Source: a virus
Virus record (IMG/VR): IMGVR_UViG_3300027498_000002
Strand: one strand, 5' to 3'
Length of the DNA stretch: 37,720 nt
The notes beneath the pieces were generated by a model. That model had not been told where the DNA came from, did not search any database, and saw only the letters and a program-made list of their open reading frames with translations. The position numbers and the translations under genes were made by a program. Shown one piece after another: positions 8,999 through 37,720 of the stretch (positions within the stretch are counted from its first letter, which is position 1; each line of letters begins with the position of its first letter).

Positions 8999-10336
8999 TT
9001 AAGCTACGTCAGCATCCTTGATGACACTGAAAGCCTGATCATGTCTGCTGTTAATGTCCCAAAAGGAGTTAACGACAATTTCCACCGTCGCCTCTTTAGC
9101 CTTCGTGTAGGGATTCACAATAATGTCAGCACCAGCCCACTGGCCTATGATTAGCTGATTCCACACACCGAATATGATAGCGTTGAGATCAGTACCGGTA
9201 CCTTTAGTCAGATCAGAAGGCACATTATTACTTACCTCAGCTCTATAGCCTAATAGGTCATTTGCCATATTATTCCAGACGAATAGCCCTGACCCAGCAT
9301 CTACCTTAGTCGTCTGTAGCTTGTAGCGTACGCCAGGCGTGAGCAGGAAGGCCATGTCTCCTATGTCAGCATCCTCTACCGCTATTTCTTTTGCCATCTC
9401 TAATAGCTTCTCCCTTGTAGGGGCTCCACCATTCGCTCCGATAGCGACTGTATTGATATCAGCAAAGTTCAATAAGCCCAAAGGCTGATTACCCGTACCT
9501 GATCCATTCAGAGCCGTAGAGTCCAGCTTTCTAGCTATCGCCATTGATAACTCCTGACGTATCCAGTTTTCTGTAGAAATACTGCTCTGCATGAGTAGCT
9601 GAGTACTGAGATCAGTATACGCAGCCAGCCTCTTAGGAGATAAGGTAAACTTATCTAATGAGGGCTCGGTTTCTACAGCGGTCGTTTGTTCTCCAGCCCA
9701 TTCAGCTGTGGCCACGCCAGTCTGCTTCTTTAGTTCTATGTTTCCGACTAGGCCAGTCATCACACTAGCACCCATCTCCATCACTTTTAGCTTCGGACGC
9801 AGGGCAGGGATGAACTCTCCGTACTCTGTTTCAACCAGATTACCAGCCGTGGCAGCAGTACCTACAGTCAAGTCTCTACTCTCCACTGAGATCAGTGCAG
9901 AGGGTACACCTATACCGCGCACATTATTGCCTGACGCTGTCGCTTCGAGTACAGCTTCCTGGTGCATTTCCAGCTCCAGCCCTTCCAGTGCTCTACCTTC
10001 CATCTTAGCGCGCATGGCTCTCAGTATACTGTACCGTTTAGATACTTTAGAGATCTCAGTCGCACGCTGCTCTTTTACCTTTCGCTTGACGGTCTGTACA
10101 GCGAGTAGGCCATCAGCTTTGATATTAGCCTCCGTCTCGCGGATCTGCTCATCTATCGCCTCCAGCTCAGTGGTGAGCGCATCACGTGTAGCTTTCTCCT
10201 CTTTTTTTAGGGAGCGAGCCTTTACAGCTTCGACGCCCTCTGAGGCTTCTACCCCTTTGGTGATGGCCATGATACTTTTGAGCTCCTCAGCCTTAGCGGT
10301 ACGCTTCTGCTGTAACTCTAATAATTGTTTTTTCAT
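8999..10336 (-). CDS. Major capsid protein, HK97 family, with N-terminal scaffold (delta) domain
   Basis: 445 aa. The first 100 aa or so are coiled-coil and charged, and the rest has HK97-like capsid motifs. It follows the prohead protease. Confidence 0.9.
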   Translation of the reverse strand: MKKQLLELQQKRTAKAEELKSIMAITKGVEASEGVEAVKARSLKKEEKATRDALTTELEAIDEQIRETEANIKADGLLAVQTVKRKVKEQRATEISKVSKRYSILRAMRAKMEGRALEGLELEMHQEAVLEATASGNNVRGIGVPSALISVESRDLTVGTAATAGNLVETEYGEFIPALRPKLKVMEMGASVMTGLVGNIELKKQTGVATAEWAGEQTTAVETEPSLDKFTLSPKRLAAYTDLSTQLLMQSSISTENWIRQELSMAIARKLDSTALNGSGTGNQPLGLLNFADINTVAIGANGGAPTREKLLEMAKEIAVEDADIGDMAFLLTPGVRYKLQTTKVDAGSGLFVWNNMANDLLGYRAEVSNNVPSDLTKGTGTDLNAIIFGVWNQLIIGQWAGADIIVNPYTKAKEATVEIVVNSFWDINSRHDQAFSVIKDADVA

Positions 10337-10370: not shown

Positions 10371-10949
10371 TTATTGCAAAGCGTATGCAATACTGATTGC
10401 TTTATGATTACGTTGCTCTTCTTCTATATCTTCAGGTCGCTCAGCGTCAGACATGTGCTGCTTTATCGTGTCTATGCTTTTCTGGATCAGCGCATTAGGA
10501 TTAGAGCCGATGGGCACTATTGAGAATTCTAATAGTGACTGCTTAGCATAGTAGAATTTGTCAGGATCTTCCCCCAGGTCACTGTAGCCCCATCGATATT
10601 CTGTTGGGTCAAAGCCTACTGATGTCATCCTGATCGTCCCAGCGATGATCTTTTTTAAGACCTTTTCTGCTAAAGGGTTCACATCCTCAGTTTCGAAAGT
10701 CGCATCAGCCATTAGCTTATTGCCTTCTCGATAGACTCGCCCTGTCCCTATCACCATATCAGGATTATCAGTGTGCGACTTATGGCCCCAGAGAACGACG
10801 GGGTTTTTATTATAGTCAGTAAGATCCCAGCCATCGATCTTGATGATGGTGCGGTGTCTATCCTCAGTCTCATCAGAGATGCAGAAGGTCACTGTGCGTG
10901 TCTCCTCATCTATCGTGCGCTGCTCAGTTGATAGTAATTTTTTAATCAT
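10371..10949 (-). CDS. Prohead serine protease (HK97 family)
   Basis: 192 aa between portal and capsid. Pattern FCISDETEDRH ... VLWGH ... resembles the caudovirus prohead protease. Confidence 0.85.
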   Translation of the reverse strand: MIKKLLSTEQRTIDEETRTVTFCISDETEDRHRTIIKIDGWDLTDYNKNPVVLWGHKSHTDNPDMVIGTGRVYREGNKLMADATFETEDVNPLAEKVLKKIIAGTIRMTSVGFDPTEYRWGYSDLGEDPDKFYYAKQSLLEFSIVPIGSNPNALIQKSIDTIKQHMSDAERPEDIEEEQRNHKAISIAYALQ

Positions 10950-12174: not shown

Positions 12175-12256
12175 ATAAAGAATAAATATATATGTCTTTA
12201 TAGCAGCTCACCTCATGAGCTGTTTACCTACATATTATATGCATGTATGGGGCTAA

Positions 12257-12469
12257 TTATTTATATAGGAGCGTCACTATCCTTTGGTATCTCCATTCAT
12301 CTACTGCGTCCTCAGATACTACAAAGCCAGTTTTTATGGATTCAAAGTGGTAATTAATATCGTTATCCCACTCTAATGTATATCCATAAAGTATTTTAAC
12401 TCCTGTTAGTATGTCTATAGGCTCACCACTTAGAGGCATATCGTCTTCGTGTATTTTTGTCCAGTTCAT
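12257..12469 (-). CDS. Hypothetical protein (late-strand, within the AT-rich island)
   Basis: ATG-initiated 70-aa ORF. Confidence 0.4.
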   Translation of the reverse strand: MNWTKIHEDDMPLSGEPIDILTGVKILYGYTLEWDNDINYHFESIKTGFVVSEDAVDEWRYQRIVTLLYK

Positions 12470-12528
12470 ATTTTTCTTTTTCCGACTTTGGCGTTAGTCA
12501 CTCATGATGCTATTTCGAAAGTTAAAAA

Positions 12529-12542
12529 TTAACAAATGTTAA
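12529..12542. promoter_or_regulatory. Palindromic operator-like site TTAACAAATGTTAA upstream of the plus-strand moron
   Basis: Half sites TTAACA/TGTTAA with a 2-nt spacer. Near-identical sites occur at 27322..27335 and 27367..27380. Confidence 0.4.
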
Positions 12543-12651
12543 TTTATGTAAATAAATTAATATTAATTCCATTTAATGATGTATTATGTCAATATAATTC
12601 TTATATTTACATCATCGAAGCAATTAAGCGGAGAGTAAAAAGTAAATTATA

Positions 12652-12858
12652 ATGAAAGTATCAAAAGCAATTAAAACAGGGAAAATAACATTAGAAGAAA
12701 TTGTTGATTTTATGAATGATGAATTAAGTAATGCGGATCATGTTAAAAAAACTCTATCTGAAATAACTGGTTATGAAGTAGCTAAGATAGATTCTGGTAA
12801 TGAGTGGGATTCTGATTCAATCCTTAATTGTGATATAATTGACGCAACACCTTGTTAG
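12652..12858 (+). CDS. Small acidic protein (candidate anti-defence / moron gene)
   Basis: 68 aa, rich in D/E, on the opposite strand to all flanking late genes. Has its own AT-rich upstream region and terminator. Confidence 0.5.
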   Translation: MKVSKAIKTGKITLEEIVDFMNDELSNADHVKKTLSEITGYEVAKIDSGNEWDSDSILNCDIIDATPC

Positions 12859-12874
12859 TAATTTAAACTAAATA

Positions 12875-13054
12875 ATGAGATTCTACAAACTAAAATCAGA
12901 AAGCCAAGAGCTTTACTATTCAAACCTAATGTTACTTTGTAAAGCTCACAAATTATCATACAGGTCAGCCAACGATAAAATCAAACGCCAAAAGCTACCC
13001 TATAAAAAAAATGGAATGGTAGTTAGAGAGCTGCACATGATTGGACGTGATTAA
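12875..13054 (+). CDS. Small basic putative HTH protein (59 aa, not in the ORF track)
   Basis: ATG at 12875 and TAA at 13052, translated by hand as MRFYKLKSESQELYYSNLMLLCKAHKLSYRSANDKIKRQKLPYKKNGMVVRELHMIGRD. The helix-turn-helix-like core resembles NUMOD1-type DNA-binding modules. Confidence 0.4.
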   Translation: MRFYKLKSESQELYYSNLMLLCKAHKLSYRSANDKIKRQKLPYKKNGMVVRELHMIGRD

Positions 13055-13070
13055 TTCCCATTATCTATTC

Positions 13071-13097
13071 CAGTTGTAACTATATTCTTTACAACTG
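13071..13097 (+). other. Stem-loop (9-bp stem) preceding the terminator
   Basis: CAGTTGTAA (13071..13079) pairs with TTACAACTG (13089..13097). Confidence 0.4.
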
Positions 13098-13132
13098 CCT
13101 ATTGTGTATCTGCTTTAACATTCATTCCACCT

Positions 13133-13185
13133 AATGCAGTATGTGAAATTTTGGCACATACTGCATTTATTTCTCATTTGATTTT
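13133..13185 (+). terminator. Rho-independent terminator of the plus-strand moron
   Basis: Perfect 13-bp stem, AATGCAGTATGTG (13133..13145) with CACATACTGCATT (13155..13167), and a 9-nt loop, followed by a T-rich tract (TATTTCTCATTTGATTTT). Confidence 0.6.
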
Positions 13186-13341
13186 ACGAGACTTCACCGA
13201 TTTGAAAGAATCATAATTTTTATACTTCCGATACCCAAACTCCCTGGCGTGTCTGATCTCCAGCACCTCATAAGCATCACAATGAAAACTAAACTTGTGT
13301 AGTATCCGATAGAATTCATTTATAAATTGTTCAGTCGTCAT
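13174..13341 (-). CDS. Hypothetical small protein (55 aa, not in the ORF track)
   Basis: ATG 3 nt after the terL stop. Hand translation: MTTEQFINEFYRILHKFSFHCDAYEVLEIRHAREFGYRKYKNYDSFKSVKSRKIK. Confidence 0.3.
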   Translation of the reverse strand: MTTEQFINEFYRILHKFSFHCDAYEVLEIRHAREFGYRKYKNYDSFKSVKSRKIK

Positions 13342-13344
13342 CGC

Positions 13345-14955
13345 TTAGTTTATTGTAAAAAATTCCATCTTGTAATCATCAGGCATTTCTGGCACTGGTT
13401 CTGCTTCCAGCTGAGTCAGGTAATCACATATGGCATTGCAAAGTGATACTGGCCCATCGATCTTGTCTTTAGACTTAGCCTTGTCCATCCACCTATTTCC
13501 GTTTCGGTCACTATATGTTCTGACGTTATCCATCTGCCAGGCCAGCGCAGGATTACTGAATTGTATATGCCCCTTCATAATCAGAACCTCTACGAAGTCA
13601 ATGACCCGACCCATAGTAGTGGGCCCCTGCCTGTACTTTTGCATATTGATACCTTCCTCCAGCAGCGTAGATACCACGCCCCACGCCTTCCATGGATCAT
13701 ATCCGTTGCTGAGTATCTTGTACTCCGTGTGCAGCTGGAGTATAAACTCATGCATAGGTCCATACTCCATAGCGTTACCCGGCACTGTTTTAATATGCCC
13801 CTGCTTATGCCATAGTCTGAAGTTGGTGTTATCATCATTCATACGCTGATATAGTCGCTGCTCTGGCAGCCATTGGTAGCACATCCAAATGAAAGGGTCT
13901 TTCTTTGTTGGACTCTTCCCCAGTGGAGGAAACAAAAGCGAGTAGCTACAAAGATCATTCACGTATGCCGTATCTAATCCTCCGTAGGCATCACGCCCAG
14001 CCAGCTTCTCAGGCTTGATGTTCACTTGACATTTTTTTACCACATTCGCAGATATCCAAGCATTCACATTTCCTACCCATTGACCTAGTCTGAGTCGTCT
14101 AAATTCTGGCTCCGATCCTGGCATCTGCTTAACCTCTCTAGAGCCTGCCTCCATGGAGCGCTTTAGTGATTCATTGAAACCAGGATTTACTTTGTCCCAT
14201 ACCTTCGGATCGTGGATGTCATCTTTTTCGTCAATGCCATATATCACAACATGCCAGGAGGGTTCGTAAAAGACACCACTCTGAATCTTCAACGCCCTTT
14301 CATGCATCTGATGAGCGAATGTATTAATATACCCACTGTTAGTAATCACCCAGGTGATAGGCTGCGTTCTGGAGCTAGTACCTTTATAGAGCGAGTGCCA
14401 GAGCTTATCAGTAGGCTGGGCGTGTAGCTCATCGAATAACACACTATGCAGGTTATGCCCATGCTTAGTGTCTGCTGTGCTTGATATAGCTTTATACATT
14501 GAGTTGGACTTGATGTGCTCAATGCTACCACTCATCACGTTAAGTCTTGATGATAAGAACTTAGATTGCTTCACCATCTGCTTCGCAAAGCCGAATATGA
14601 TCTTTGCCTGCTCATGTGCTGCGGCTGCGCCAAAAATATCTGCGCCAAGTTCACCATCAGCACACAGCATGAATAATGTCAGAGCAGCAAGAAGTGTAGA
14701 CTTCCCGTTTTTTTTCGGTATCTCCACCCAGCATACCTGATGTTTCCTATACCCAGTTGATTTTTTTTTGACTCCAAAAACAGGGTAGATGATATCCCTC
14801 TTCTGCCACTCAGATAAGATCAACGGCTCACCTGCCAATTGGCCTTGCACGTGAGTGCAGTAACTCTCTACAAACTTGACTACACGCTCAGCTGCTACCT
14901 CGTCAAAATAGTATTTCCGCTTGTCATATTTTGGAAGCAACTTTTTTTTTATCAT
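13345..14955 (-). CDS. terL: Terminase large subunit
   Basis: 536 aa. Walker A-like IPKKNGKSTLLAA, Terminase_1-type N-terminus (EPLILSEWQKRDI) and a nuclease C-terminal half. ATGA overlap with terS. Confidence 0.95.
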   Translation of the reverse strand: MIKKKLLPKYDKRKYYFDEVAAERVVKFVESYCTHVQGQLAGEPLILSEWQKRDIIYPVFGVKKKSTGYRKHQVCWVEIPKKNGKSTLLAALTLFMLCADGELGADIFGAAAAHEQAKIIFGFAKQMVKQSKFLSSRLNVMSGSIEHIKSNSMYKAISSTADTKHGHNLHSVLFDELHAQPTDKLWHSLYKGTSSRTQPITWVITNSGYINTFAHQMHERALKIQSGVFYEPSWHVVIYGIDEKDDIHDPKVWDKVNPGFNESLKRSMEAGSREVKQMPGSEPEFRRLRLGQWVGNVNAWISANVVKKCQVNIKPEKLAGRDAYGGLDTAYVNDLCSYSLLFPPLGKSPTKKDPFIWMCYQWLPEQRLYQRMNDDNTNFRLWHKQGHIKTVPGNAMEYGPMHEFILQLHTEYKILSNGYDPWKAWGVVSTLLEEGINMQKYRQGPTTMGRVIDFVEVLIMKGHIQFSNPALAWQMDNVRTYSDRNGNRWMDKAKSKDKIDGPVSLCNAICDYLTQLEAEPVPEMPDDYKMEFFTIN

Positions 14956-17488: not shown

Positions 17489-17846
17489 TTATATCAACTA
17501 CTTTTTTGTTATCAATGGCATGTAATAGGGAAGTCAAGCAGTCGCTATCACAGTTAGTTTTTATTGACTGTATCAGGGAGTTGAGTCTCACGTTTTCTAT
17601 CCTTGCTGTGTGGTGCTTTTTGGAGGCCTCTAGATGCATATCAAAAACCTTTGATAGCTCTTCGTTCACCTTAAGGAGCTGTATCCTGATCTTGCTTTCG
17701 CTCTCCATCTCAATGGACTCCTTTTCGCTTTTTCTTCGATATTTACCGACGCCAAAATAGCCCACCACAGCTGTAATGATAGATCCTGCAATGATCACCA
17801 CCTGGCCGCTGTGCTCTTTAATTATATCTGTCAAAAGGTTACCCAT
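17478..17846 (-). CDS. N-terminally anchored membrane protein with coiled coil (i-spanin-like topology)
   Basis: TM segment VVIIAGSIITAVVGYFGVG followed by a charged helical region. Confidence 0.5.
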   Translation of the reverse strand: MGNLLTDIIKEHSGQVVIIAGSIITAVVGYFGVGKYRRKSEKESIEMESESKIRIQLLKVNEELSKVFDMHLEASKKHHTARIENVRLNSLIQSIKTNCDSDCLTSLLHAIDNKKVVDINEK

Positions 17847-20800
17847 TAATTTAATTTATATCGGTTTACGGTAAATGTAGAGTCAGCGACTACAGAGACA
17901 TCAGAGCCAGAGTTATCCTTTCTGACTTCTAAGAATAGCTTAGATCCTGCCCTAAGGTACTTGGTCAACGTGCTTGAAAAATGTGACTTATCACTAGCAG
18001 GGCCAGTGGGATTATGAACATAATGGCTCCACTCTTCGACAACTGAATTACCTGCGCTGGAGACGTAGAATAGTCTGATATACACTGTATTTTCATTCGA
18101 TCCGCTCCCAACAAATTCTAAGTCTAAGGTGATCTTATAATAATCATCTTCAGACATGTTTATCTCACTACTATTGGTCTGGCTGAGCGTAGACCCTGTA
18201 GAGGAACCTAAACCACCAAAATTCAAACGGCTATACGAGCCCCCTACTGATGTACTACCGCCACCCTTGGTATATGTGGCGCTATCAAACAATAGACTCG
18301 GTGCGCTACCTCCTGAGGCAAAAAAATCAAGACGGTTGTTTTGATCATTGTAGGTGACATTAATGTTAGATTCAACATTGTTGCTCACCATGCCCCCTAT
18401 TATATCTTGTACGTTTTCGCTGCTTAGGACATCGTCAAGCACCTGACCTCCACCGCTCAGAATGATATTCCTGCCTGATTTTGTCAGCTGCTGTATCTCA
18501 TTAGTGCCACTCACGTCATTGGCGTAAAAGTTCAGCTTTCCGTTGGTGTCGTTATATGATACATTAATACCTGATTCGGTGTTAGACACTACCATGTCGC
18601 CTACCAAATCTTCTATGCTCTCGTCGCTGCGACCTCCTGCTAAGCTAGAAAGATCAACGTCATTTTTACTGGAAATTGATAGTATGTTATTAGATGAGCT
18701 GAATGCTAAATTTTGAAGTTCATTGATGATGCTATTGTCATTATCAGCAACTGAAAATGTCGCATTAGTACCTCCCTTATCGATTGAGATCGTGCGATTA
18801 GTGCCCGACGAACTCGGTGAGAGGTTCTGTATCTCATTAGATGAGCTATTGTCGTTGTTGGCAGGAAAATTCACAACAAAGTCGATCTCATTGTTCAGGT
18901 CATCATATGTGACATTTATCCCCGATTCTGTATTGCCCGACAACATCGGCTCGATGTGATCTTGCACTTGCTCTCGAGTCAGGTTAGTGTTATCTAAGTA
19001 GCCAGCCAGCGATATATTTGTTAAACTATTCGTCAGGGACAAATTATTATTAGAGAAAGTCAAATCTTGAAACTCATTGCCTATCAAATTGTCATTATCA
19101 GCAACTGAAAATGTCGCATTAGTACCTCCCTTATCGATTGAGATCGTGCGATTAGTGCCCGACGAACTCGGTGAGAGGTTCTGTATCTCATTAGATGAGC
19201 TATTGTCGTTGTTGGCAGGAAAATTCACAACAAAGTCGATCTCATTGTTCAGGTCATCATATGTGACATTTATACCTGATTCTGTATTGCCTGAGAGCAT
19301 GGGCTCGATGTGGTCTTGCACTTGCTCGCGAGTCAGATTAGTGTTATCTAAGTAGCCAGCCAGCGATATATTTGTTGAGCTATTCGTCAGGGACAAATTA
19401 TTATTAGAGAAAGTCAAATCTTGAAACTCATTGCCTATCACATTGTCATTATCAGCGATGGAGAAGGTCGCATTAGTACCCCCTTTATCAATTGCGATTG
19501 TGCGATTAGTGCCCGACGCGCTGGGGGAGAGATTCTGTATCTCATTAGATGAGCTATTGTCGTTATCAGCGATGGAGAAGGTCGCATTAGTGCCCCCTTT
19601 ATCAATTGCGATTGTGCGATTAGTGCCCGACGCGCTGGGGGAGAGGTTCTGTATCTCGTTAGATGAGCTATTATCGTTGTTGGCAGGAAAATTCACGATA
19701 AAATCTATCTCATTGTCATCGTCATCGTAGGTGACATTTATCCCAGATTCGGTATTGCCTGAGAGCATGGGCTCGATGTGGTCTTGCACTTGTTCGCGAG
19801 TCAGATTAGTGTTATCTAAGTAGCCGGCCAATGGGACCACTATGCTACTGTTAGTCATAGATAGGTCATTGCCTGTCAGTGACAAATCTTGATACTCATT
19901 ACCTATCACATTATCATTGTCAGCGATGGAGAAGGTCGCATTAGTACCTCCTTTGTCGATTGCGATCGTGCGATTAGTGCCAGACGCGCTGGGTGAGAGA
20001 TTCTGTATCTCATTAGTAGAACTGTTGTCATTGTTAGCTGGTACGGTGGACCAGATAACCCCATCTGCGTCGCGGCTGAGGTACTGGCCTGTGCTGCCTA
20101 TGCTTTGATTACTGTCTTCTATGTGATTGAGGAGGCCGAGTTTGCCATTTACTTTTAGATAATCAGCGAATACGTCACCGTAGATCAAGTTACCATTTCC
20201 AATATAAATCTTTCCATTTTGAGTACCGCTAAAAGCAGGGGGACCAGCGCCCGTGCCAATGCTTATGTTCTCACTTCCATTTTCAAGTTGGGACTCACCT
20301 ATTATGATGTTTAGGTCCCCTGATGAGAAACTAGGCGCAGCAAAATTGCCAAGTATCGTGTTATTGTTTCCTGTATTAAAGGTCGATGCAGCAAATGACC
20401 CAACTATCGTATTACCTATACCCGTATGGCTAAGTCCGTTACCTATTATTACATTCTGATTGTCGTTAAATTCATAAATACTTGCCCTCACGTTTCCTTG
20501 CACGTGTAGTTTCCTGTTAGGGTTACTCGTCCCTATCCCCACAGTCACACCAGTATTATTATATAGCTTATCCCCTGACGCGGTCCAGAAATTATCTTGA
20601 ATAGGTAGAAGGGCACTACCTCCATCCTCTAAGAATAGTTCATTGCCCAATATGGTGAGCTGCTGATTATCGAGGTATGGGTCTAAGCTAACGCCATTGC
20701 CATAGCTGATGAGAATACTATCATTTCTTAGTTCAAGGTTACGCCTTGGTGTCTTGATGCCATTAGTATTAGAGATGTAAATACTGTCACTAGACACTGA

Positions 20801-21325
20801 TAAACTCTGAGCAGCTCCAGCGATGATTGAGCCAAGGTTTACACTGTTGCCATTACTGATATATAATAAGGAATCAATAATTGATAATGTCTGGACATCC
20901 ACTAAGTCAATAGGTACGCCATTGCCTCCAGTGATAAATATTGAATCATTAAGAATCGTGAGCGTTTGGACCAGACTATCAGGAAAAAAGGAATCTATAG
21001 AAACACTGTTTCCTCCTGATATGATAAGTGAGTCCCCCACAATAGACAGTGTCTGCTCATCAGTATCAGTATCAGTATCAATAGAGCTGATATCAATGTT
21101 CCCCCCTCGCTGTAGCGTGATGATACCATCGTTATAAAACAGCTGCTGAGCATCGGTATCGAATACGGCCAGATTGACTGAGTTAGAACCTTTGAGCTTT
21201 AGGAGGTTACCCGATAGAATCAATGAATCTATCTTACATTTGTCATACCTCAACGTGTCTCGTGATACCTGAGCTGATAACCCGTACGCCACCAGCAGCA
21301 TAGCTATGATCTTTAGAATCCTCAT
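17846..21325 (-). CDS. Large exported repeat protein, tail-fibre/adhesin-like
   Basis: Start trimmed to the ATG at 21325, giving signal peptide MRILKIIAMLLVAYGLSA|Q. Roughly 22-aa repeats (QTLSI.GDSL.ISGGNSV.L) come first, then a fibre-like segment (GVTVGIGTSNPNRKLHVQGN, GNTIVGSFAAS ... NTILGNFAA). After that are 118-aa tandem repeats and a beta-sandwich-like C-terminus. Confidence 0.8.
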   Translation of the reverse strand: MRILKIIAMLLVAYGLSAQVSRDTLRYDKCKIDSLILSGNLLKLKGSNSVNLAVFDTDAQQLFYNDGIITLQRGGNIDISSIDTDTDTDEQTLSIVGDSLIISGGNSVSIDSFFPDSLVQTLTILNDSIFITGGNGVPIDLVDVQTLSIIDSLLYISNGNSVNLGSIIAGAAQSLSVSSDSIYISNTNGIKTPRRNLELRNDSILISYGNGVSLDPYLDNQQLTILGNELFLEDGGSALLPIQDNFWTASGDKLYNNTGVTVGIGTSNPNRKLHVQGNVRASIYEFNDNQNVIIGNGLSHTGIGNTIVGSFAASTFNTGNNNTILGNFAAPSFSSGDLNIIIGESQLENGSENISIGTGAGPPAFSGTQNGKIYIGNGNLIYGDVFADYLKVNGKLGLLNHIEDSNQSIGSTGQYLSRDADGVIWSTVPANNDNSSTNEIQNLSPSASGTNRTIAIDKGGTNATFSIADNDNVIGNEYQDLSLTGNDLSMTNSSIVVPLAGYLDNTNLTREQVQDHIEPMLSGNTESGINVTYDDDDNEIDFIVNFPANNDNSSSNEIQNLSPSASGTNRTIAIDKGGTNATFSIADNDNSSSNEIQNLSPSASGTNRTIAIDKGGTNATFSIADNDNVIGNEFQDLTFSNNNLSLTNSSTNISLAGYLDNTNLTREQVQDHIEPMLSGNTESGINVTYDDLNNEIDFVVNFPANNDNSSSNEIQNLSPSSSGTNRTISIDKGGTNATFSVADNDNLIGNEFQDLTFSNNNLSLTNSLTNISLAGYLDNTNLTREQVQDHIEPMLSGNTESGINVTYDDLNNEIDFVVNFPANNDNSSSNEIQNLSPSSSGTNRTISIDKGGTNATFSVADNDNSIINELQNLAFSSSNNILSISSKNDVDLSSLAGGRSDESIEDLVGDMVVSNTESGINVSYNDTNGKLNFYANDVSGTNEIQQLTKSGRNIILSGGGQVLDDVLSSENVQDIIGGMVSNNVESNINVTYNDQNNRLDFFASGGSAPSLLFDSATYTKGGGSTSVGGSYSRLNFGGLGSSTGSTLSQTNSSEINMSEDDYYKITLDLEFVGSGSNENTVYIRLFYVSSAGNSVVEEWSHYVHNPTGPASDKSHFSSTLTKYLRAGSKLFLEVRKDNSGSDVSVVADSTFTVNRYKLN
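18720..20040. repeat. In-frame tandem repeat, 354-bp unit x about 3.4, plus an extra 114-bp sub-unit duplication
   Basis: Units at 18723, 19077 and 19431 sit at exactly 354-nt offsets. The two lowest copies share a perfectly identical run of about 185 nt. The protein repeat is NDNSSSNEIQNLSPS.SGTNRTI.IDKGGTNATFS.ADNDN + ...GYLDNTNLTREQVQDHIEPMLSGNTESGINVTYDD. Confidence 0.9.
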
Positions 21326-21326
21326 A

Positions 21327-22304
21327 TTAGTAAATATCAAATGTGTAATTAGTTAATGACTTACTGGGCTTTATTCTGATGTCCTGTCCACCGATGATTA
21401 TGGTGTACTTAGAGTCGTGCACGGTATATGCTTTACCTGTCTTTATGAGACCAGAATAGTAGAGTACATTACCATTCTTTACTTTGATAGACTGTACCTT
21501 CTTTTTCTTGTCTCTGGTACCAGTCATGACAGCAGTCATCAGCTCTGTCTCATTCATGTAGTGTATGTCAGATGAGGTATTCATCTTGACCTTCTTTTGC
21601 TTTGCTGTGCGCTTGACACGCTCCAAGGGGTGCCACATCATCGCAAAAGGGGCAGGGGGAGGTATATCACAGATTATGTCAGCTGAGATGTCCCTGATCT
21701 GCTGAGTCAGCACCTTGTTTCTTTCCTTCTTATCAGGGATGAGCTCAAGGGGGTAGGACCAGCGTATATCTCCTGCTCCATCCGTAGAGTCTTGGAGCAC
21801 AGCTATATTCATAATCTGATGTAAGGTATCATTGTGCTCCTGTATTGTCTCAAAGTATACGATAGTCGCGCACTGCACTGTATTGACGATTCTATAGTTA
21901 GATAGCTCGATGTCGTCGATGTATTCAAATTCCATTTGGCTACCAGAAGGCCGGAGGGGGTCCATGAAGTAATCAGCTATATCGATGGTATCACACGCCT
22001 TGGCTGACTCAATAGCCTGGGTCTCTAAAGCATACCAGACACTGTCTGAATGAGCTTGGCTCCTGATAAGGTCGTAGGCGTACTCATGCATTGACTTGAT
22101 GTAAGGGTCTGTCTGCTGGTAGCCTCCTGCAGCCTGTACTTGATAGCCGAACACCCTGACTGAAGTGTCTCTTATCTCTCTATCTCGATCTATGGTGATG
22201 ACCTCATAGCAGTCATAAGTGTGCACAGGGGTGATATTAACCTGGCCCCACATCGTGAGTGGAGCCAGTAACATGAAACACAGCACGGATCTATACCTTC
22301 TCAT
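21327..22304 (-). CDS. Exported hypothetical protein
   Basis: Signal peptide MRRYRSVLCFMLLAPLTMWG|Q. 325 aa. Confidence 0.6.
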   Translation of the reverse strand: MRRYRSVLCFMLLAPLTMWGQVNITPVHTYDCYEVITIDRDREIRDTSVRVFGYQVQAAGGYQQTDPYIKSMHEYAYDLIRSQAHSDSVWYALETQAIESAKACDTIDIADYFMDPLRPSGSQMEFEYIDDIELSNYRIVNTVQCATIVYFETIQEHNDTLHQIMNIAVLQDSTDGAGDIRWSYPLELIPDKKERNKVLTQQIRDISADIICDIPPPAPFAMMWHPLERVKRTAKQKKVKMNTSSDIHYMNETELMTAVMTGTRDKKKKVQSIKVKNGNVLYYSGLIKTGKAYTVHDSKYTIIIGGQDIRIKPSKSLTNYTFDIY

Positions 22305-25237: not shown

Positions 25238-25405
25238 TGTCATTTACCTATTCTCTTCATGTGTCACCATTATATGGATGTCGAATATTAGGTATCGTGG
25301 GCGTATTCGTGAACATTAGGAGTAAAGGGGGGATGTAAGGTGTTGTGGGTGAGGGTGTTATGGGAATTGGGGAGGCCCCAGACCGGTCACCATCTCCCCC
25401 AAAAT

Positions 25406-25546: not shown

Positions 25547-26737
25547 ATGAATAAACTAAATCTCCCCCAAATGAAAGTAAGGTACTTACTGCGTAATAAG
25601 GCTCGCTATCATGATTATATCCCACTGATCTGTCGCATCAGTCATCGTGGAGTCTCTGAATTCAACACAGGGCTATTGATAAGAGAGCAGCACTGGGACC
25701 ATGACAAGCAGCGAGATAAACGCGACAAGATAAACGTTAAAATAAAGCTGATCACGCAGAAAATCATGGATGTGTATAACGAACATGCTGACAGCAGCTG
25801 GACCAGCACCGATATTTTAAATCAAATGGAGGCAGACCATTCGCCAAAATTCAATTGGCCCGATCTATTCAGCGCACATGATCAACACCAAGCAGTCGTG
25901 AAAAGCTCAGCTAAGTACACCAGGGATAGATACATGAGGTGCATGAGGTATCTGATAGAAGACATTCCTAATATCAGCATCAACTATCTTAAGCGATCAC
26001 ACATCAGTTTATTCTACCAGGCACTGAGGTCACGAGGCATATCTAATAATATGGCCGTGAAGTATATCAGCCTGCTATCATCTGTCATTGAGTATGGTAA
26101 CTATATGGATCTCATAGACATTAAGAATCCTTGCAAGGGGCATCAATTTAAGCTGGAGGAGGTAGAAACTGTCTACCTGGATCATGCAGAGCTGGGCAGG
26201 CTGGAGCACAAAGACTTGTCTATGCTCCCTAGGCTGGAGCAGGTCAGAGATGTCTTCGTCTTTCAGTGCTATACAGGCATGGAGTACAGCAGAGTAGTGA
26301 CACTCCATATGCAGCAGATCAAAAAAGATGCGCAAGGGGATCTTTGGATAGAGTCTACCAGACAAAAGACAGGCGTGAAGATACATATATACCTCTACCC
26401 TGAGGCGAAAGCTATATTAAATCGTTATAGCTGTTACCAGGACGAGCACGGAGGCAAGGCACTACCTGTCAGCAGTAATCAGCATATGAATGCGTATCTA
26501 CAAGAGCTATGCACTATATGTCAGATTGACAAGAAGCTGACGACACATAAGGCCAGACACACTTTTGCGACTACAGTGCTACTAGATAGGGGTGTCTCCA
26601 TGGAAAGCGTAAAGAATCAGTTAGGCCATAGATCCATTAAAACGACTGAGTCAGTGTATGGCAAGATCACGAGAAAGCGCATCAAGGATGAATCATTGAA
26701 GGTATTAAAGGACCACTATTCTACTGAAGAAGGTTAA
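25547..26737 (+). CDS. int: Tyrosine recombinase / phage integrase
   Basis: 396 aa. The C-terminal catalytic region HKARHTFATTVLL ... LGHRSIKTTESVYGKI supplies the R, H-x-x-R and Y residues. The N-terminal arm-binding and SAM-like regions are typical of Bacteroidota integrases. Confidence 0.95.
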   Translation: MNKLNLPQMKVRYLLRNKARYHDYIPLICRISHRGVSEFNTGLLIREQHWDHDKQRDKRDKINVKIKLITQKIMDVYNEHADSSWTSTDILNQMEADHSPKFNWPDLFSAHDQHQAVVKSSAKYTRDRYMRCMRYLIEDIPNISINYLKRSHISLFYQALRSRGISNNMAVKYISLLSSVIEYGNYMDLIDIKNPCKGHQFKLEEVETVYLDHAELGRLEHKDLSMLPRLEQVRDVFVFQCYTGMEYSRVVTLHMQQIKKDAQGDLWIESTRQKTGVKIHIYLYPEAKAILNRYSCYQDEHGGKALPVSSNQHMNAYLQELCTICQIDKKLTTHKARHTFATTVLLDRGVSMESVKNQLGHRSIKTTESVYGKITRKRIKDESLKVLKDHYSTEEG

Positions 26738-26774: not shown

Positions 26775-26917
26775 ATTAAAATACCTCATTTAAACACTTA
26801 CCCCCACTTAACAGTTATATATACACTAATCGAAATCTTTATCATCTGAATCTAGTGGACATAAAGGCATCTTTTAACTGATTTTGCTTTTTATCCATTT
26901 AACTACTATTGACTCAG

Positions 26918-27316
26918 ATGAATTACGTAAAGACTCAAACGTATAGCCATGAGGCTATATCCTCACCAGTACAGGGGACAATCAAAATTAAATTATACAC
27001 CATCAGTGGACGGCTCACGGAGACCATTAAGGGCATCTTTGCCCAGCTCATCCATAGGGACCATGAGCTGCTAAAAGGCCATCAAATAGCTGCGCATACA
27101 TGCAGAACGTTTTGGCTGATTCGGGCCGAAAAAGGGGCTGTTATACCACCTCATTATCACACATATAGTCAGAGAATCATCATGCTGAGCGGCCTTACAT
27201 GGGAGACAGAAAGGGGTATATCTTACACTCCAGGCATGATATATGACATCCCAGCTCACCAAAATCACGGCTTTTTAATGCGCGAAAAGAGCGCGTATCT
27301 AGTCTTAATCAAATAA
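26918..27316 (+). CDS. Cupin-fold protein
   Basis: Start trimmed to the ATG at 26918. Motifs IPPHYHTYSQRIIMLSG ... IPAHQNHGF. Confidence 0.55.
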   Translation: MNYVKTQTYSHEAISSPVQGTIKIKLYTISGRLTETIKGIFAQLIHRDHELLKGHQIAAHTCRTFWLIRAEKGAVIPPHYHTYSQRIIMLSGLTWETERGISYTPGMIYDIPAHQNHGFLMREKSAYLVLIK

Positions 27317-27321
27317 TTATG

Positions 27322-27335
27322 ATAACATTTGTTAA
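27322..27335. promoter_or_regulatory. Operator-like palindrome ATAACATTTGTTAA
   Basis: 13 of 14 match to the reverse complement of the 12529..12542 site. Confidence 0.4.
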
Positions 27336-27366
27336 CATTTATTGAATTTGCCGCGCTTATTTTTAA

Positions 27367-27380
27367 TTAACAATTGTTAA
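27367..27380. promoter_or_regulatory. Perfect 14-bp palindrome TTAACAATTGTTAA
   Basis: Same half sites (TTAACA/TGTTAA, 2-nt spacer) as 12529..12542. Confidence 0.4.
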
Positions 27381-27392
27381 GGATATTAATAA

Positions 27393-27420
27393 CATATGTT
27401 CAACATATGATGAACATATG
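27393..27420. repeat. CATATG box array A (3 boxes, 11-bp phasing)
   Basis: CATATG at 27393, 27404 and 27415. Confidence 0.9.
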
Positions 27421-27454
27421 GCGTGAGACTTTTTGCACGTTTTTTACCTATTCT

Positions 27455-27472
27455 TAGCGACACTTGTCGCTA
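27455..27472. promoter_or_regulatory. 18-bp inverted repeat TAGCGACA-CT-TGTCGCTA between arrays A and B
   Basis: Perfect 8-bp arms with a 2-nt spacer, which looks like a protein-binding site. Confidence 0.4.
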
Positions 27473-27533
27473 TTGATCGCGCTAAATGTCACTATAAAAA
27501 TTAAACGCCTGATTTTCAATGACTTACGATTAT

Positions 27534-27594
27534 CATATGATAAACATATGATGAACATATGATCATCATATGAAAAACATATGTTCATCATATG
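27534..27594. repeat. CATATG box array B (6 boxes, 11-bp phasing)
   Basis: CATATG at 27534, 27545, 27556, 27567, 27578 and 27589. Flank consensus is (A/T)CATATG(A/T)T. Confidence 0.95.
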
Positions 27595-27642
27595 GAAATA
27601 GAAATAGAAATAGAAATAGAATTAGAAATAGAACTAGAAAAA
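27595..27642. repeat. Hexanucleotide microsatellite (GAAATA)n, 8 units (5 perfect)
   Basis: GAAATA x4, GAATTA, GAAATA, GAACTA, GAAAAA, directly abutting array B. Confidence 0.9.
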
Positions 27643-27775
27643 CTAGTACCAAGAATTCTAGAATTTATCTAGAAAAAGAATTTTCAAAAAAAATGAAAAA
27701 TCGAAAATCAAAATTTGGAAAATCAGAAAATTCGAATTAGGTTTGCATCGTCGAATTTATCGAAATCGAAATCTC
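27643..27775. repeat. A-tract / short tandem repeat block (GAAAATC- and ATCGAAA-type units)
   Basis: Runs of A4-A8 every 7-13 nt, then ...TGAAAAATCGAAAATCAAAATTTGGAAAATCAGAAAATTCG... and ATCGAAATCGAAATC. Confidence 0.7.
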
Positions 27776-27829
27776 CAGCCCAGCAGCTGGAAGCCACAGC
27801 GGCTAAAAAATGTGAGTCCGACATTCGAA

Positions 27830-27847
27830 TTGTAAAAATTTTTACAA
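27830..27847. other. Perfect 18-bp palindrome TTGTAAAAATTTTTACAA downstream of the lipoprotein gene
   Basis: Self-complementary. Lies 35 nt beyond the stop of 27882..28319, so it may be a bidirectional terminator or a binding site. Confidence 0.35.
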
Positions 27848-27881
27848 CAATCAGCAGGACCAAATCGACAGCTTTAATTTC

Positions 27882-28799: not shown

Positions 28800-29090
28800 A
28801 TGGATAGTAAGATACATTACACAGAAGTAAAATCCAGAAAAAAGTTTTTGGAGCTCTGGGATGAGCTAAGTGTGTATAAGCGAAGGTTCGACATGGCTGA
28901 CATAGCCAAGCGAATGAATCTCACTCCAGCACAGGTGTCATCATATGTCTGGCAGGTCCGTAATGACCTCAGAAGAAGCTACGACATTAACACCTTAGAG
29001 CTGATCTATAATCACCTTGCTGACATAGTCAGAAGTCGCAAGGCTTTTATCGAGAAGCAGAAAGAGGAATTGAGAGCTTCTCTTTCCTAG
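28800..29090 (+). CDS. Cro-like / early regulator with HTH
   Basis: 96 aa. MADIAKRMNLTPAQVSSYVWQVRN looks like an HTH. Divergent from the repressor. Confidence 0.5.
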   Translation: MDSKIHYTEVKSRKKFLELWDELSVYKRRFDMADIAKRMNLTPAQVSSYVWQVRNDLRRSYDINTLELIYNHLADIVRSRKAFIEKQKEELRASLS

Positions 29091-29168: not shown

Positions 29169-29196
29169 CATATGATACACATATGATCATGATATG
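29169..29196. repeat. CATATG box array C (CATATG, CATATG, GATATG, 11-bp phasing)
   Basis: Boxes at 29169, 29180 and 29191. Confidence 0.8.
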
Positions 29197-29322
29197 AAAA
29201 ATAAAAAGCGCAAAGCGAAAGCAGCAAAGAACATTAAGAAGCGGATCAAGAAAATAGAGCGGCAGCTGAGAAAGCTACGTAAGGCGCATAACTACTCTCA
29301 GATAGGGTATACACAATATTAG
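29194..29322 (+). CDS. Possible 42-aa hyperbasic peptide (not in the ORF track)
   Basis: Hand translation: MKNKKRKAKAAKNIKKRIKKIERQLRKLRKAHNYSQIGYTQY. Its ATG is part of the third box of array C. Confidence 0.25.
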   Translation: MKNKKRKAKAAKNIKKRIKKIERQLRKLRKAHNYSQIGYTQY

Positions 29323-29530: not shown

Positions 29531-30253
29531 ATGATTCTGACAGACATATTTTCATTCTTATTTACATTTTTTATTAGCGCAGTTGGTCGCCTGGTGCAAA
29601 GGCATCAGGAGACCAATTTATTGCCTAAAGTCAATGCAGATATTGAAAGGCTTAACCATAATCACCATATAATGACCTTTAACCCTATCATAGACGAACC
29701 CAGGAGGACCTACAGGATCAAGAAAAAGTGTGAACATAATCGCTACACCCCTGAGATGATCAGCTTCATTAAGAAGCATTACTCTAAGGCTGAAAACACT
29801 GACGAGTTCGCTAAGCTCTTTAATCAGAGATTTAGCGAAGCACAAAGGGCCGTCGCCACGCTGCAGGCGAAAGCCAATAAACTAAATCTCAAGCGTCCAA
29901 ATGGAAGCCTGCGATATTCTGATCAGGAGATAGCCTTCTTTCATGAGCACTACCTGGCAGCTAAGACGATAGCTGATTTTCACAAAGCATTTAATGAGGC
30001 ATTCAATAAAAAGAGAAGTGCCTCAGCTCTGCGCATGTATGCTAATGATAGACTGGGACTACAGCGACGAGGGCAGAAGTGGACCAGGGTGAACTTTACG
30101 GAGGCCGAAGTAGCCTACCTCATCAAGCACTATCCCACAGCCCCTAACCTCAGGACCTTTGGCAGCGCATTCAATAAGCACTTTAAGAGCCTCCGAAAGA
30201 TGGACACACTCAGCAGCAAAGCGAAGATGCTGGGACTGAAAAGGAATAAGTAA
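29531..30253 (+). CDS. Protein with three tandem repeats of about 50 aa, Myb/SANT- or GcrA-like HTH
   Basis: Repeats: FIKKHYSKAENTDEFAKLFNQRF..ATLQAKANKLNLKR, FFHEHYLAAKTIADFHKAFNEAF..ALRMYANDRLGLQRR and YLIKHYPTAPNLRTFGSAFNKHF..TLSSKAKMLGLKRN. Confidence 0.6.
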   Translation: MILTDIFSFLFTFFISAVGRLVQRHQETNLLPKVNADIERLNHNHHIMTFNPIIDEPRRTYRIKKKCEHNRYTPEMISFIKKHYSKAENTDEFAKLFNQRFSEAQRAVATLQAKANKLNLKRPNGSLRYSDQEIAFFHEHYLAAKTIADFHKAFNEAFNKKRSASALRMYANDRLGLQRRGQKWTRVNFTEAEVAYLIKHYPTAPNLRTFGSAFNKHFKSLRKMDTLSSKAKMLGLKRNK

Positions 30254-31392: not shown

Positions 31393-32145
31393 ATGTCTAC
31401 ACCAGCATTCTTATTCTACCCAGGCGACTACCTCAGAGATACCCAAATGCTCAGCTCTAATAGCCAGGTAGCATATGACCGGATGATGTGCGAGTCTAAG
31501 CGTAGCCCCATCATCAATGAGACACAGCTGAACTTTTTAACGAAGAAGCTCACGGATGATGAGCGAGCCGAGCTCATGAATGTACTCACCGCTGTAGAGG
31601 GCGGCTATGAGATCAGCTGGGTAGCACGGAGCATAGAGAAGCGCGAGCGATACGTAGAGAGCCGAAGGAGAAATAAGACTAATTATGAAAATAAAAAGAA
31701 TCCCCTTAAAGCCGTCACCATCGAGCAGCAGCCGAGCGGAGCGCATCAGGCGCAGGGTGAGCCGATGGCTGATCAAGTACCTGAATCCGAAGGGGCCGGA
31801 CTCCCAGCGGTGATAGATCACCTCAATGCAGTAGCTGACGTGATGTACCCTTTTGACTATCCCACGAGCCAGCTCATGCTGGCCCTGCTCACAGAGGGGT
31901 ACAGCTGCGCTATGATGATTGACGTGATAGACCTGAAGCTGAGGCAGACACAAGTGAAAGGCAAAGGCGGACCAGCCTTCCAGCGCAGGTGGCTCAGCCC
32001 ACACACGTTATTTTCAAAGCTAAAATTTCCAAAATATGCCAACGAAGTCAGAGACATCAAGCAAGGCCATACAGCCGCACCAGCGCAAAGTAATGACCAG
32101 CGTTTACAAAAATTTGCCGATGATCTTGAAGAAATGGGACTGTAA
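31393..32145 (+). CDS. DUF1376 (YdaU-like) replication-associated protein
   Basis: N-terminus FLFYPGDYLRDTQMLSSNSQVAYDRMM matches the DUF1376 signature. Confidence 0.7.
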   Translation: MSTPAFLFYPGDYLRDTQMLSSNSQVAYDRMMCESKRSPIINETQLNFLTKKLTDDERAELMNVLTAVEGGYEISWVARSIEKRERYVESRRRNKTNYENKKNPLKAVTIEQQPSGAHQAQGEPMADQVPESEGAGLPAVIDHLNAVADVMYPFDYPTSQLMLALLTEGYSCAMMIDVIDLKLRQTQVKGKGGPAFQRRWLSPHTLFSKLKFPKYANEVRDIKQGHTAAPAQSNDQRLQKFADDLEEMGL

Positions 32146-34666: not shown

Positions 34667-34904
34667 CGCACTCACCCAGCCCAGTGCCAGGGAGATCAGA
34701 CAGATGAGCCTGGCACTGGATACCCTCAAGTTCTACAGAGAGCTGATAGGCTCAGCTGTATTCTGCTCTATGCGCTCCATGCTGGCAGCACACTATACCA
34801 TAGAGTTACACATGCATATGAGTCGTGACGGCTCATATGGGAGGCTTAAGAGGATCATATGCACCCCAGGGGCTGGGCCAGAAGTCAAAGTCATAGAGCC
34901 ATGA
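34656..34904 (+). CDS. Hypothetical protein
   Basis: 82-aa ORF. Confidence 0.4.
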   Translation: MKTNALTQPSAREIRQMSLALDTLKFYRELIGSAVFCSMRSMLAAHYTIELHMHMSRDGSYGRLKRIICTPGAGPEVKVIEP

Positions 34905-35251
34905 AGATGGCGCAGATATTCGGGCGCAGCTTCTTAGATGAGCTGAGGCAAGGCATCATCAGCGTCGTAGCTGAGTGTCTCAAAGAGGCACTACCTCAGC
35001 AGGGCGCGCTCATCAGTAAGCAGGAGGTAGCCAGTCGATTAGGCGTGACTAAGCACAAGCTAGACTGCATGACGAGGCTCTACAGCATCCCTTTTCACGT
35101 CATGCCTGGCTCCGCTGATCGATCATATATATATAGTGACGTACTCGCTGCTATCCGCGCAGGGAGCAGCTACGATAAGCTAAAGCGACGCACCGGACGA
35201 AAGCCGAAAAAGTGGCTGACAGATATAGTAGAATCACAACACGAAGGATAG
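34901..35251 (+). CDS. HTH DNA-binding protein (excisionase/MerR-like HTH_17)
   Basis: Start trimmed to the ATGA overlap at 34901. ISKQEVASRLGVTKHKLDCMTRLYSIPFHVMPG is excisionase-like. Confidence 0.5.
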   Translation: MKMAQIFGRSFLDELRQGIISVVAECLKEALPQQGALISKQEVASRLGVTKHKLDCMTRLYSIPFHVMPGSADRSYIYSDVLAAIRAGSSYDKLKRRTGRKPKKWLTDIVESQHEG

Positions 35252-37494: not shown

Positions 37495-37683
37495 CAGGAT
37501 ATAAAAGCTGGATTTGACGAATGTATGAGAGTCTTAAAACCCATGGGGACCCTTATCTTTAAATGGAATGAATCTCAAATATCATTAAAGCAAATTTTGG
37601 AAATCATAGACTATAAGCCTTTATTTGGACATACATCAGGAAGACACGAAAAAACTAAATGGGTTACGTTCTTTAAAAAGTAG
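37495..37683 (+). pseudogene. C-terminal remnant of a small SAM-dependent DNA methyltransferase (spans into the terminal overlap)
   Basis: The open frame after the TAG at 37492 reads QDIKAGFDECMRVLKPMGTLIFKWNESQISLKQILEIIDYKPLFGHTSGRHEKTKWVTFFKK. This matches only the C-terminal third of roughly 190-aa phage methyltransferases that carry FDECMRVLKP.GTL.FKWNE. No N-terminal catalytic part lies upstream. The internal ATG at 37525 would give 52 aa. Confidence 0.5.
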
Positions 37684-37720
37684 CGGACTTGATCTTTCAT
37701 CTACCCTCCCCCTTAAACTA
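37594..37720. repeat. Terminal overlap copy 2 (identical to 1..127)
   Basis: Same as above. Confidence 0.95.

Follow-up and report, generated by a model that had tools for sequence, protein, structure and literature searches.

A putative lambda-like iteron origin detached from its initiator-like gene in a temperate phage of Bacteroidota

Repeat-based origins and the locus under study

The replication origins of SaPI, the oriL of SPP1 (gene 38) and the ori of TP901-1 (rep) comprise two sets of short repeats that flank or adjoin an AT-rich region, are located next to or inside the rep gene, and show a phage-specific pairing of initiator and origin. In the basal unwinding system of the bacterial oriC, the DnaA boxes abut the periodic DnaA-trios. 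Repeats may also serve in initiator titration or “handcuffing”, of which incA of P1 is an example. In phage lambda the origin lies inside gene O and is bound by the O protein; a 38-bp AT-rich tract adjoins its four 18-bp iterons (PMC3349717). The subject of this work is the element at positions 27367–27772 of the IMG/VR virus record IMGVR_UViG_3300027498_000002, a stretch of 37,720 nucleotides which was analysed over its whole length and is referred to below as the window. The element consists of two arrays of the palindromic box CATATG, a GAAATA repeat and an AT-rich block and, with a probability of roughly 0.7, represents a lambda-like iteron origin that has become separated from its initiator gene, the candidate for the latter being the open-reading frame (ORF) 31393–32145; binding of the boxes by its product (gp31393–32145) and firing of the origin are predicted.

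As in ori-lambda, the iteron cluster is directly joined to an AT-rich tract, and in the relatives of the window phage this module lies within the initiator-like gene, where it separates the region for a putative DNA-binding N-terminal domain from that for a presumed helicase-recruiting C-terminal domain. The type of repeat also varies with the type of N-terminal domain, as it does in the lambda-type origins. Unlike those of lambda, the repeats are 6-bp palindromes at 11–12-bp steps rather than 18–19-bp iterons and form two clusters, the AT-rich part is a hexamer microsatellite conserved in sequence, and the putative origin of the window is located 3.8 kb from the gene. The origins of SaPI, SPP1 and TP901-1 are similar in having two sets of short repeats but differ in their proteins, hosts and repeat sequences, and among the origins of SaPI and of Gram-positive phages we know of none in which a hexamer microsatellite continues the phase of the final repeat. 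The resemblance to oriC is that double-strand boxes and a short periodic repeat meet without a gap where the strands open, although the repeat in the window is a hexamer rather than a trinucleotide and no DnaA boxes were found near the arrays. By analogy with the DnaA-trios, it may be conjectured that the initiator engages single-stranded (GAAAAT)n.

The box arrays and the adjoining AT-rich tract

Array B (27534–27594, plus strand), the putative main iteron array, contains six CATATG boxes, which start at 27534, 27545, 27556, 27567, 27578 and 27589; its design is that of the second in-gene cluster of the related phages described below. Array A (27367–27420, plus strand) contains three CATATG boxes, at 27393, 27404 and 27415, preceded by CAATTG (27371) and GATATT (27382), which gives five boxes in one 11-bp register. 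The leftward extension was overlooked by the original prediction, an earlier reading of this DNA, while the nine CATATG positions and the exact 11-nt steps that it had listed were reproduced on re-counting. The segment 27379–27420 is a near copy of the canonical four-box cluster of the related phages, with KDINNICSTYDEHM in the tblastn alignment corresponding to the family motif KDMINISKTYDEHM.

Phasing of the boxes had been said to be beyond chance. The pattern CATATGN5CATATG occurs eight times in the window, compared with 0.00 expected from 100 dinucleotide-preserving shuffles, which confirms this, and Tandem Repeats Finder assigns a period of 11 to both arrays. A or T precedes the C in all nine boxes, but the full flank (A/T)CATATG(A/T)T, described as common to all, fits only six of the nine. 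The extended palindromes TTATCATATGATAA and AACATATGTT are present in the arrays as described.

The arrays are separated by a spacer of 113 bp (27421–27533, 64% AT), which contains the 18-bp palindrome TAGCGACACTTGTCGCTA at 27455–27472; the inverted repeat reported there is real and has the form TAGCGACA-CT-TGTCGCTA (8+2+8). Two blocks of the spacer, GACAnTTGTC and TTAAnCGnnTGATnnTCAATnAnTT, are conserved in a relative (L003, described below), and the spacer is a putative site for an auxiliary or host factor.

The GAAATA repeat (27595–27642, plus strand) abuts the last box of array B. It is the counterpart of the (GAAAAT)3-5 of the related phages and a putative sequence-specific unwinding element. 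Of the predicted (GAAATA)8, the hexamer repeat itself stands, with five perfect and three imperfect units instead of eight perfect ones; Tandem Repeats Finder reports 7.7 copies at 27595–27640 with a 90% match. It is followed by an A-biased AT-rich block (27643–27772, plus strand, 75% AT) with GAAAATC and ATCGAAA mini-repeats, a putative extension of the unwinding region. The top strand at 27595–27772 comprises 92 A, 44 T, 26 G and 16 C, and AT content is 75–81%. Among the 200-bp segments of the genome, 27529–27728 ranks second in instability, about 3.6 standard deviations above the mean. The region had been described as bent or easily melted, with phased A-tracts, and only the melting part of this description is supported: A-runs in the block are spaced at 6–13 nt, and their autocorrelation has no peak at 10–11 nt, so that bending by A-tracts is not supported.

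The module in related phages

A 19-mer common to arrays A and B, scanned through metagenomes, led to unrelated contigs in which five or six CATATG at 11–12-nt steps are directly followed by (GAAAAT)n or (GGAAAT)n inside an ORF. The N-terminal domain of these array-bearing ORFs is homologous to ORF 31393–32145 of the window (hmmsearch E 1e-25; phmmer 3e-32), and the peptide [DH]MxNI[SC]xTY[DV]xHMENEN directly follows this domain in 118 of the 120 best homologues. An exhaustive search yielded 214 representatives of 50%-identity clusters at E<=1e-10; the strict signature is present in 130 of the 150 best representatives and a relaxed form in most others. The module is found in the gene, in its linker-coding part, in about 90–98% of the family members examined, and most relatives show this one module only.

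Within the gene, the module typically has three or four CATATG boxes, with steps of 11 or 12 nt, and (GAAAAT)3-5 immediately after the last box. The boxes of 56 distinct IMG/VR loci are (G/C)ATATG-ACATATC-CATATG-CATATG at 11-nt steps, abutting (GAAAAT)3-5, and their DNA consensus is GATATG-aataACATATC-t.aaaCATATG-tt.aaCATATG followed by GAAAATGAAAATGAAAAT. A first cluster of two to four boxes, encoding HMRNIC or DMLxICxTYDED, is located 155–200 bp upstream in the same gene. The family layout of two clusters and a hexamer repeat is thus that of the window, array A-113 bp-array B. In some sub-families the steps are 12 nt (GHMTSHMENEN), as in array A of L003. Among the loci examined, the module is exclusive to this protein family.

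A DnaB-type helicase is encoded in 19 of the 54 relatives whose downstream ORFs were scanned, and Toprim primases and a DnaA-C-like protein are also found among the downstream genes. The presence of boxes and hexamers inside an initiator-like gene of hundreds of related phages supports the earlier view that iterons next to an easily melted element represent an origin. The family is large, almost wholly uncultured and mostly from Bacteroidota, its genome matches including the cultured Flavobacterium sp. Sd200 and F. beibuense RSKm HC5.

The step of 11 nt places successive boxes in three reading frames (HM, IC/IS and TY). Codons were compared in 63 distinct genes, the motif being located from the protein alone. 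The box-compatible codons are fixed in the motif (xCA, TAT and CAT, each 63/63), as are the hexamer codons (GAA 204/204, AAT 171/171), while elsewhere in those genes the same codons are used at 46–79% (Fisher p 1e-12 to 1e-34, values that overstate independence, as related sequences rather than independent events are counted). The flanks of the motif have diverged to 25–75% amino acid identity. Since the synonymous codons of the boxes are 100% fixed in spite of their being read in three frames, selection acts on the DNA and not on the peptide. Not only the composition but also the sequence of the hexamer is conserved, suggesting its specific recognition.

The putative initiator and its covariation with the boxes

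ORF 31393–32145 (plus strand) encodes a putative initiator of 250 amino acids and contains no box array. It comprises an N-terminal domain (residues ~1–102), winged-helix-like in the structural model, a linker (residues 108–133) and a C-terminal Phg_2220_C domain (Pfam PF09524, 35.7 bits against a cut-off of 27), and it matches PHROG 428, “replication initiation protein”. The matches to TIGR02220 of NCBIfam (22.9 against 66.65) and to DUF1376 (PF07120, 14.9–18.2 bits against 30.1) are sub-threshold; the latter is restricted to the N-terminal PAFLFYxxD(W/Y) region and, being under the Pfam gathering threshold, does not make the protein a member of DUF1376. No match to the lambda-O family was found in Pfam or PHROGs. 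The earlier view that this genome has no recognisable Rep-type initiator is not supported, given the combination of Phg_2220_C, PHROG 428 and a DUF1376-like N-terminal domain in this protein, which was absent from the four proteins proposed earlier for binding assays and is the best candidate for the array binder.

The AlphaFold 2 model of gp31393–32145 has a mean predicted local distance difference test score (pLDDT) of 83. Its N-terminal domain is modelled confidently as helical, with a β hairpin and a long basic helix (residues 75–102). The linker is disordered exactly where the relatives encode the module, and the C-terminal domain is helical. A profile search against the sequences of the PDB gave no match.

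Among the top 120 genes of the family, only that of the window and P0122, which is 60% identical, are array-free. P0122 comes from the JGI sample 3300009446, which is also the source of L003 with its free-standing array. Among the sequences searched, the combination of an array-free gene with a free-standing array is seen only in the window phage and, it appears, in its closest relative. The residues encoded by the boxes in relatives (H36, M37, N39, I40, C41 and the HM..EN linker) are exactly those altered in the window protein, where CEHMRNICI is replaced by CESKRSPII and the linker lacks HM..EN. The array region is not a decayed copy of the initiator gene, because its spacer shows no coding similarity to the N-terminal domain; only the box-encoded peptides match.

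The repeats also change with the N-terminal domain. The relatives L004 and L006 combine a C-terminal domain of the window type with another N-terminal domain and have no CATATG arrays; in L006, different 16-nt repeats are found in its own linker-coding region. In the P0207 lineage (L233, 10300–10660), the gene contains CGTACG at 10593, 10605, 10628 and 10640 (12/23/12-nt steps), abutting (GAAAAT)3, and S replaces N in the basic motif SRRxN, while N is present in 201 of 201 proteins of the CATATG type and in the window protein. The P0207 protein also has an inserted MUG113/T5orf172-like domain. A rule by which every array-free gene has a free-standing array does not extend beyond the window and L003/P0122, the P0207 lineage having in-gene CGTACG and the P0252 lineage (L237) no array within ±10 kb. 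The 16.7-kb L237 contains no CATATG at all, which may reflect avoidance of the site or a different type of origin. In L004, a different repeat-rich block is found 3' of int at 1530–1745, in a position matching that of the window arrays, with two copies of TTGATAAGTCAA, repeats of GTTATAAG and a 34-nt unit present 2.6 times; this block may represent a detached origin of L004 itself.

This covariation bears on the possibility that the binder of the boxes is not the initiator but a conserved protein of the host or a different one of the phage, for instance a nucleoid-associated or methylation-sensitive one, and that the module serves in chromatin organisation, packaging or recombination, e.g., as an island of homology for the shuffling of C-terminal domains. 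Such a role would agree with the homology of the family, which stops exactly at the module, beyond which the C-termini are unrelated, and with the DNA methylase genes near the family gene (in 13 of the 54 relatives whose downstream ORFs were scanned). It is nevertheless quite unlikely: the module is found only together with this N-terminal domain, being absent where the same C-terminal domain is joined to another one, and the switch of one lineage to CGTACG accompanies a change in the otherwise invariant basic motif. As to packaging, the terminase genes of the window are about 12 kb from the arrays, and the relatives keep the module by helicase and not by packaging genes.

The proposed origin and its standing

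According to the proposed mechanism, 27367–27772 would be the vegetative replication origin of the phage. Its two clusters of 6-bp palindromic CATATG iterons would be bound cooperatively, on one face of the DNA, by the N-terminal domain of gp31393–32145; the nucleoprotein array would strain and open the adjoining GAAATA repeat and AT-rich block; and the C-terminal Phg_2220_C domain would recruit the helicase of the host, as the phage itself encodes none. In the lineage of the window, the module would have moved 3.8 kb upstream of the initiator gene into a non-coding convergent gap. This gap (27317–27881) is bounded on the left by the end of the cupin-like ORF 26909–27316 and on the right by that of the leftward operon 28726->27882.

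The locus has several features of iteron origins: a cluster of direct repeats, with 3(+2) + 6 boxes at 11-bp steps, an adjacent AT-rich element, and a putative cognate initiator on the same replicon, coupled to the repeats by comparative evidence. The location of the origin within the initiator gene is seen in the relatives, while in the window the gene is array-free. A broader proposal is considerably more tentative, namely that the module represents an undescribed, widespread class of replicators of Bacteroidota phages, in which the SRRxN basic helix of a DUF1376-like domain would read E-box-like 6-bp palindromes one turn apart, the hexamer would act as a sequence-specific periodic element for unwinding or single-stranded DNA binding in phase with the last box, and the cis element and the linker would be co-encoded in three frames, the element being excisable yet functional.

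Several observations weigh against the assignment as an origin. The AT-rich tract is not uniquely unstable, the segment 12517–12716 being less stable than 27529–27728, and GC skew is flat over 18–32 kb, without an origin signal. The initiator role of the family is assigned at the level of annotation, from PHROG 428, the name given in UniRef and the helicase genes nearby; a Foldseek search of the AlphaFold 2 model against the PDB gave nothing significant, the best being DnaD with a probability of 0.28 and weak winged-helix matches. In the P0252 lineage the gene lacks an array and no 6-bp palindrome of any kind forms one within ±10 kb, which indicates that the complementarity of gene and array is not universal, and the relatedness of the sequences counted in the codon test weakens its p-values. 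No cultured phage among GenBank phage records carries the family, the tblastn search of its proteins against 50,697 such records giving one metagenomic match only, and a literature search found no description of the module. Finally, the CATATG box hardly varies even where the N-terminal domains are as little as 25–30% identical (and is unchanged across domains of 25–35% identity), so that a conserved host factor could be the binder.

The instability at 12.5 kb may also be taken to suggest that the arrays are a control or incompatibility locus, acting by initiator titration, by “handcuffing” or as operators for an initiator-like repressor, with replication starting elsewhere, e.g., in the 12.5-kb gap or near a third set of boxes, mini-array C. 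Sets of boxes are indeed present at three places (27371–27420, 27534–27594 and 29169–29196), the arrays lie beside the lysogeny module, and the least stable DNA is accompanied by the box-like palindrome TTAACAAATGTTAA. An explanation of this kind is unlikely. The unit conserved in hundreds of relatives, most of which have one module only, consists of boxes and abutting hexamers under selection as DNA, which is the layout of iterons with an unwinding element and not of a titration array. In addition, the gap in the window is convergent and contains five promoter-like sites compared with 4.1 expected, i.e., not above chance.

Mini-array C (29169–29196, plus strand), which the original prediction had overlooked, lies between ORF 28800–29090 and ORF 29531–30253 and consists of CATATG, CATATG and GATATG at 29169, 29180 and 29191, followed by AAAAATAAAAAG. 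It is possibly a secondary or control site of the array-binding protein. An ORF of 42 codons very rich in Lys and Arg (29194–29322), possibly coding, begins at the ATG of its last box.

The phage genome and its integration site

The first 127 nt of the window reappear at its end (nt 1–127 recur at 37594–37720, an assembler overlap), which shows the contig to be circular and complete, with a length of about 37.6 kb. It encodes the portal, capsid, TerL, TerS, tape measure and amidase lysin of an HK97-type siphovirus and, at 25547–26737, a tyrosine integrase of the Bacteroidota type with Arm-DNA-bind_5, SAM_5 and catalytic domains, and its early region runs rightward from 28.8 kb. It is a temperate phage of Bacteroidota. 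In two further metagenome assemblies (L001 and L002), from the metagenomes ERZ511480 and ERZ27241780, the array region is 100% identical, including the copy number of the hexamer.

Relatives were found through the integrase, one of them 69% identical (P0002) and two 44% identical (P0003 and P0004). Other searches were less productive: blastn against GenBank phages and a search for P0122 in IMG/VR gave nothing or little, a single integrase query of genome and viral contigs gave few or no relatives, and the exact look-up of the 396-amino-acid integrase ORF gave no useful match, the database version using a 388-amino-acid start. In L003, whose integrase is 69% identical, and in L004, int is immediately preceded by a tRNA-Lys(UUU) gene of full length (L003 50–125, L004 68–141), while the window keeps only the last 18 nt of this gene, GCCCCAGACCGGTCACCA, at 25375–25392 upstream of its integrase. 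A tRNA remnant against a complete tRNA gene is the classical attP/attL relationship, which places attP upstream of int; from these alignments, the attP core corresponds to 25375–25392, and L003 and L004 are integrated at the tRNA-Lys gene.

In L003, both arrays are contiguous and located about 1.85 kb inside the prophage. The cupin-like ORF is followed by six CATATG at 12-bp steps, by a spacer (about 125 bp) in which the palindrome GACAATTGTC is found, and by more boxes, with (GAAAAT)4 directly after a final CATATG; the free-standing architecture is thus conserved in this relative. These junctions exclude almost completely the suggestion that the arrays are arm-type attP sites of the integrase around the 18-bp palindrome as a core. 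The neighbouring tyrosine integrase does have an Arm-DNA-bind_5 domain, the 3 + 6 repeats surround a palindrome in a convergent non-coding gap, and short direct repeats near a tyrosine integrase are also typical of lambda-family attP arm sites. The tRNA-Lys junction, however, is about 2 kb away on the other side of int, and the arrays are internal in the integrated L003. This candidate was accordingly rejected on the L003/L004 junctions and the 18-nt tRNA 3' end, attP lying elsewhere.

The original prediction also considered a centromere of the ParR type, as in parC of plasmid R1, which would make the phage a plasmid-prophage whose repeat blocks are bound by an adaptor protein for segregation. 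The locus resembles parC superficially, in that ~11-bp repeats form two blocks on either side of a central region and all sites lie on one face of the DNA. It differs in lacking an adjacent parM/parR partition operon (an actin-like or Walker ATPase with its adaptor) with a promoter in the repeats, promoter-like sites in the spacer being no more frequent than by chance. The 44 ORFs scanned contain no helicase, primase, second Rep, ParA, ParM, ParB or ParR-like family. With an integrase and a tRNA-Lys attP present, relatives found integrated, and the module of the relatives placed within a replication gene adjoining DnaB, a centromere is very unlikely.

Other features of the window

A box-like palindrome, TAACATTTGTTAA, with a CATTTG core is located at 27323–27335 (no strand assigned), just 3' of the stop codon of ORF 26909–27316. 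The sequence TAACANNTGTTA occurs exactly three times in the window (12530, 27323 and 27368), and with up to one mismatch it occurs seven times against 1.5 expected. At the other end of the gap, a terminator-like hairpin (27773–27792, minus strand), identified as a pattern match, would end the leftward operon before the AT-rich block. CATATG is frequent in the window as a whole (33 copies against ~11 expected from base composition), and three further copies at 34815, 34834 and 34856 (47 bp; steps of 19 and 22) are found just 5' of ORF 34859–35251.

The portal and terminase genes are separated by a low-GC (34%) gap of about 1.1 kb (12175–13345) without long ORFs, which contains the least stable DNA of the genome mentioned above and a palindrome of the type found at 27323 and 27368. 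A moron, a regulatory region or a second cis site are possible roles of this gap. Tandem repeats at 18734–20032 (units of 114, 354 and 468 nt, 84–95% identical) are located within the 1164-amino-acid ORF 17846–21340, the product of which is likely a tail or fibre protein; the assemblies L001 and L002 break at these repeats. In the early region of the related L006, a tRNA-Met gene is present at 9436–9509.

Significance

The replication origins of Bacteroidota phages are essentially uncharacterised. The module described here may be regarded as a lambda-type iteron origin with new traits: the geometry of the boxes, a microsatellite as the unwinding element, co-encoding in three frames in the relatives, and detachment from the gene in the window phage. 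It would explain the conserved “HMENENEN” peptide of the family as a by-product of a DNA element. The in-gene and detached versions, as well as those with CATATG and CGTACG, constitute a natural experiment that separates origin function from coding constraint, and the prophages in cultured Flavobacterium strains (L188 and L191) give experimental access to it. A working pair of origin and initiator could seed shuttle vectors for Bacteroidota. Boxes of CATATG or CGTACG at 11–12 bp with (GAAAAT)n after them provide a simple signature, by which the probable origin and its initiator could be located in the genomes of hundreds of uncultured phages.

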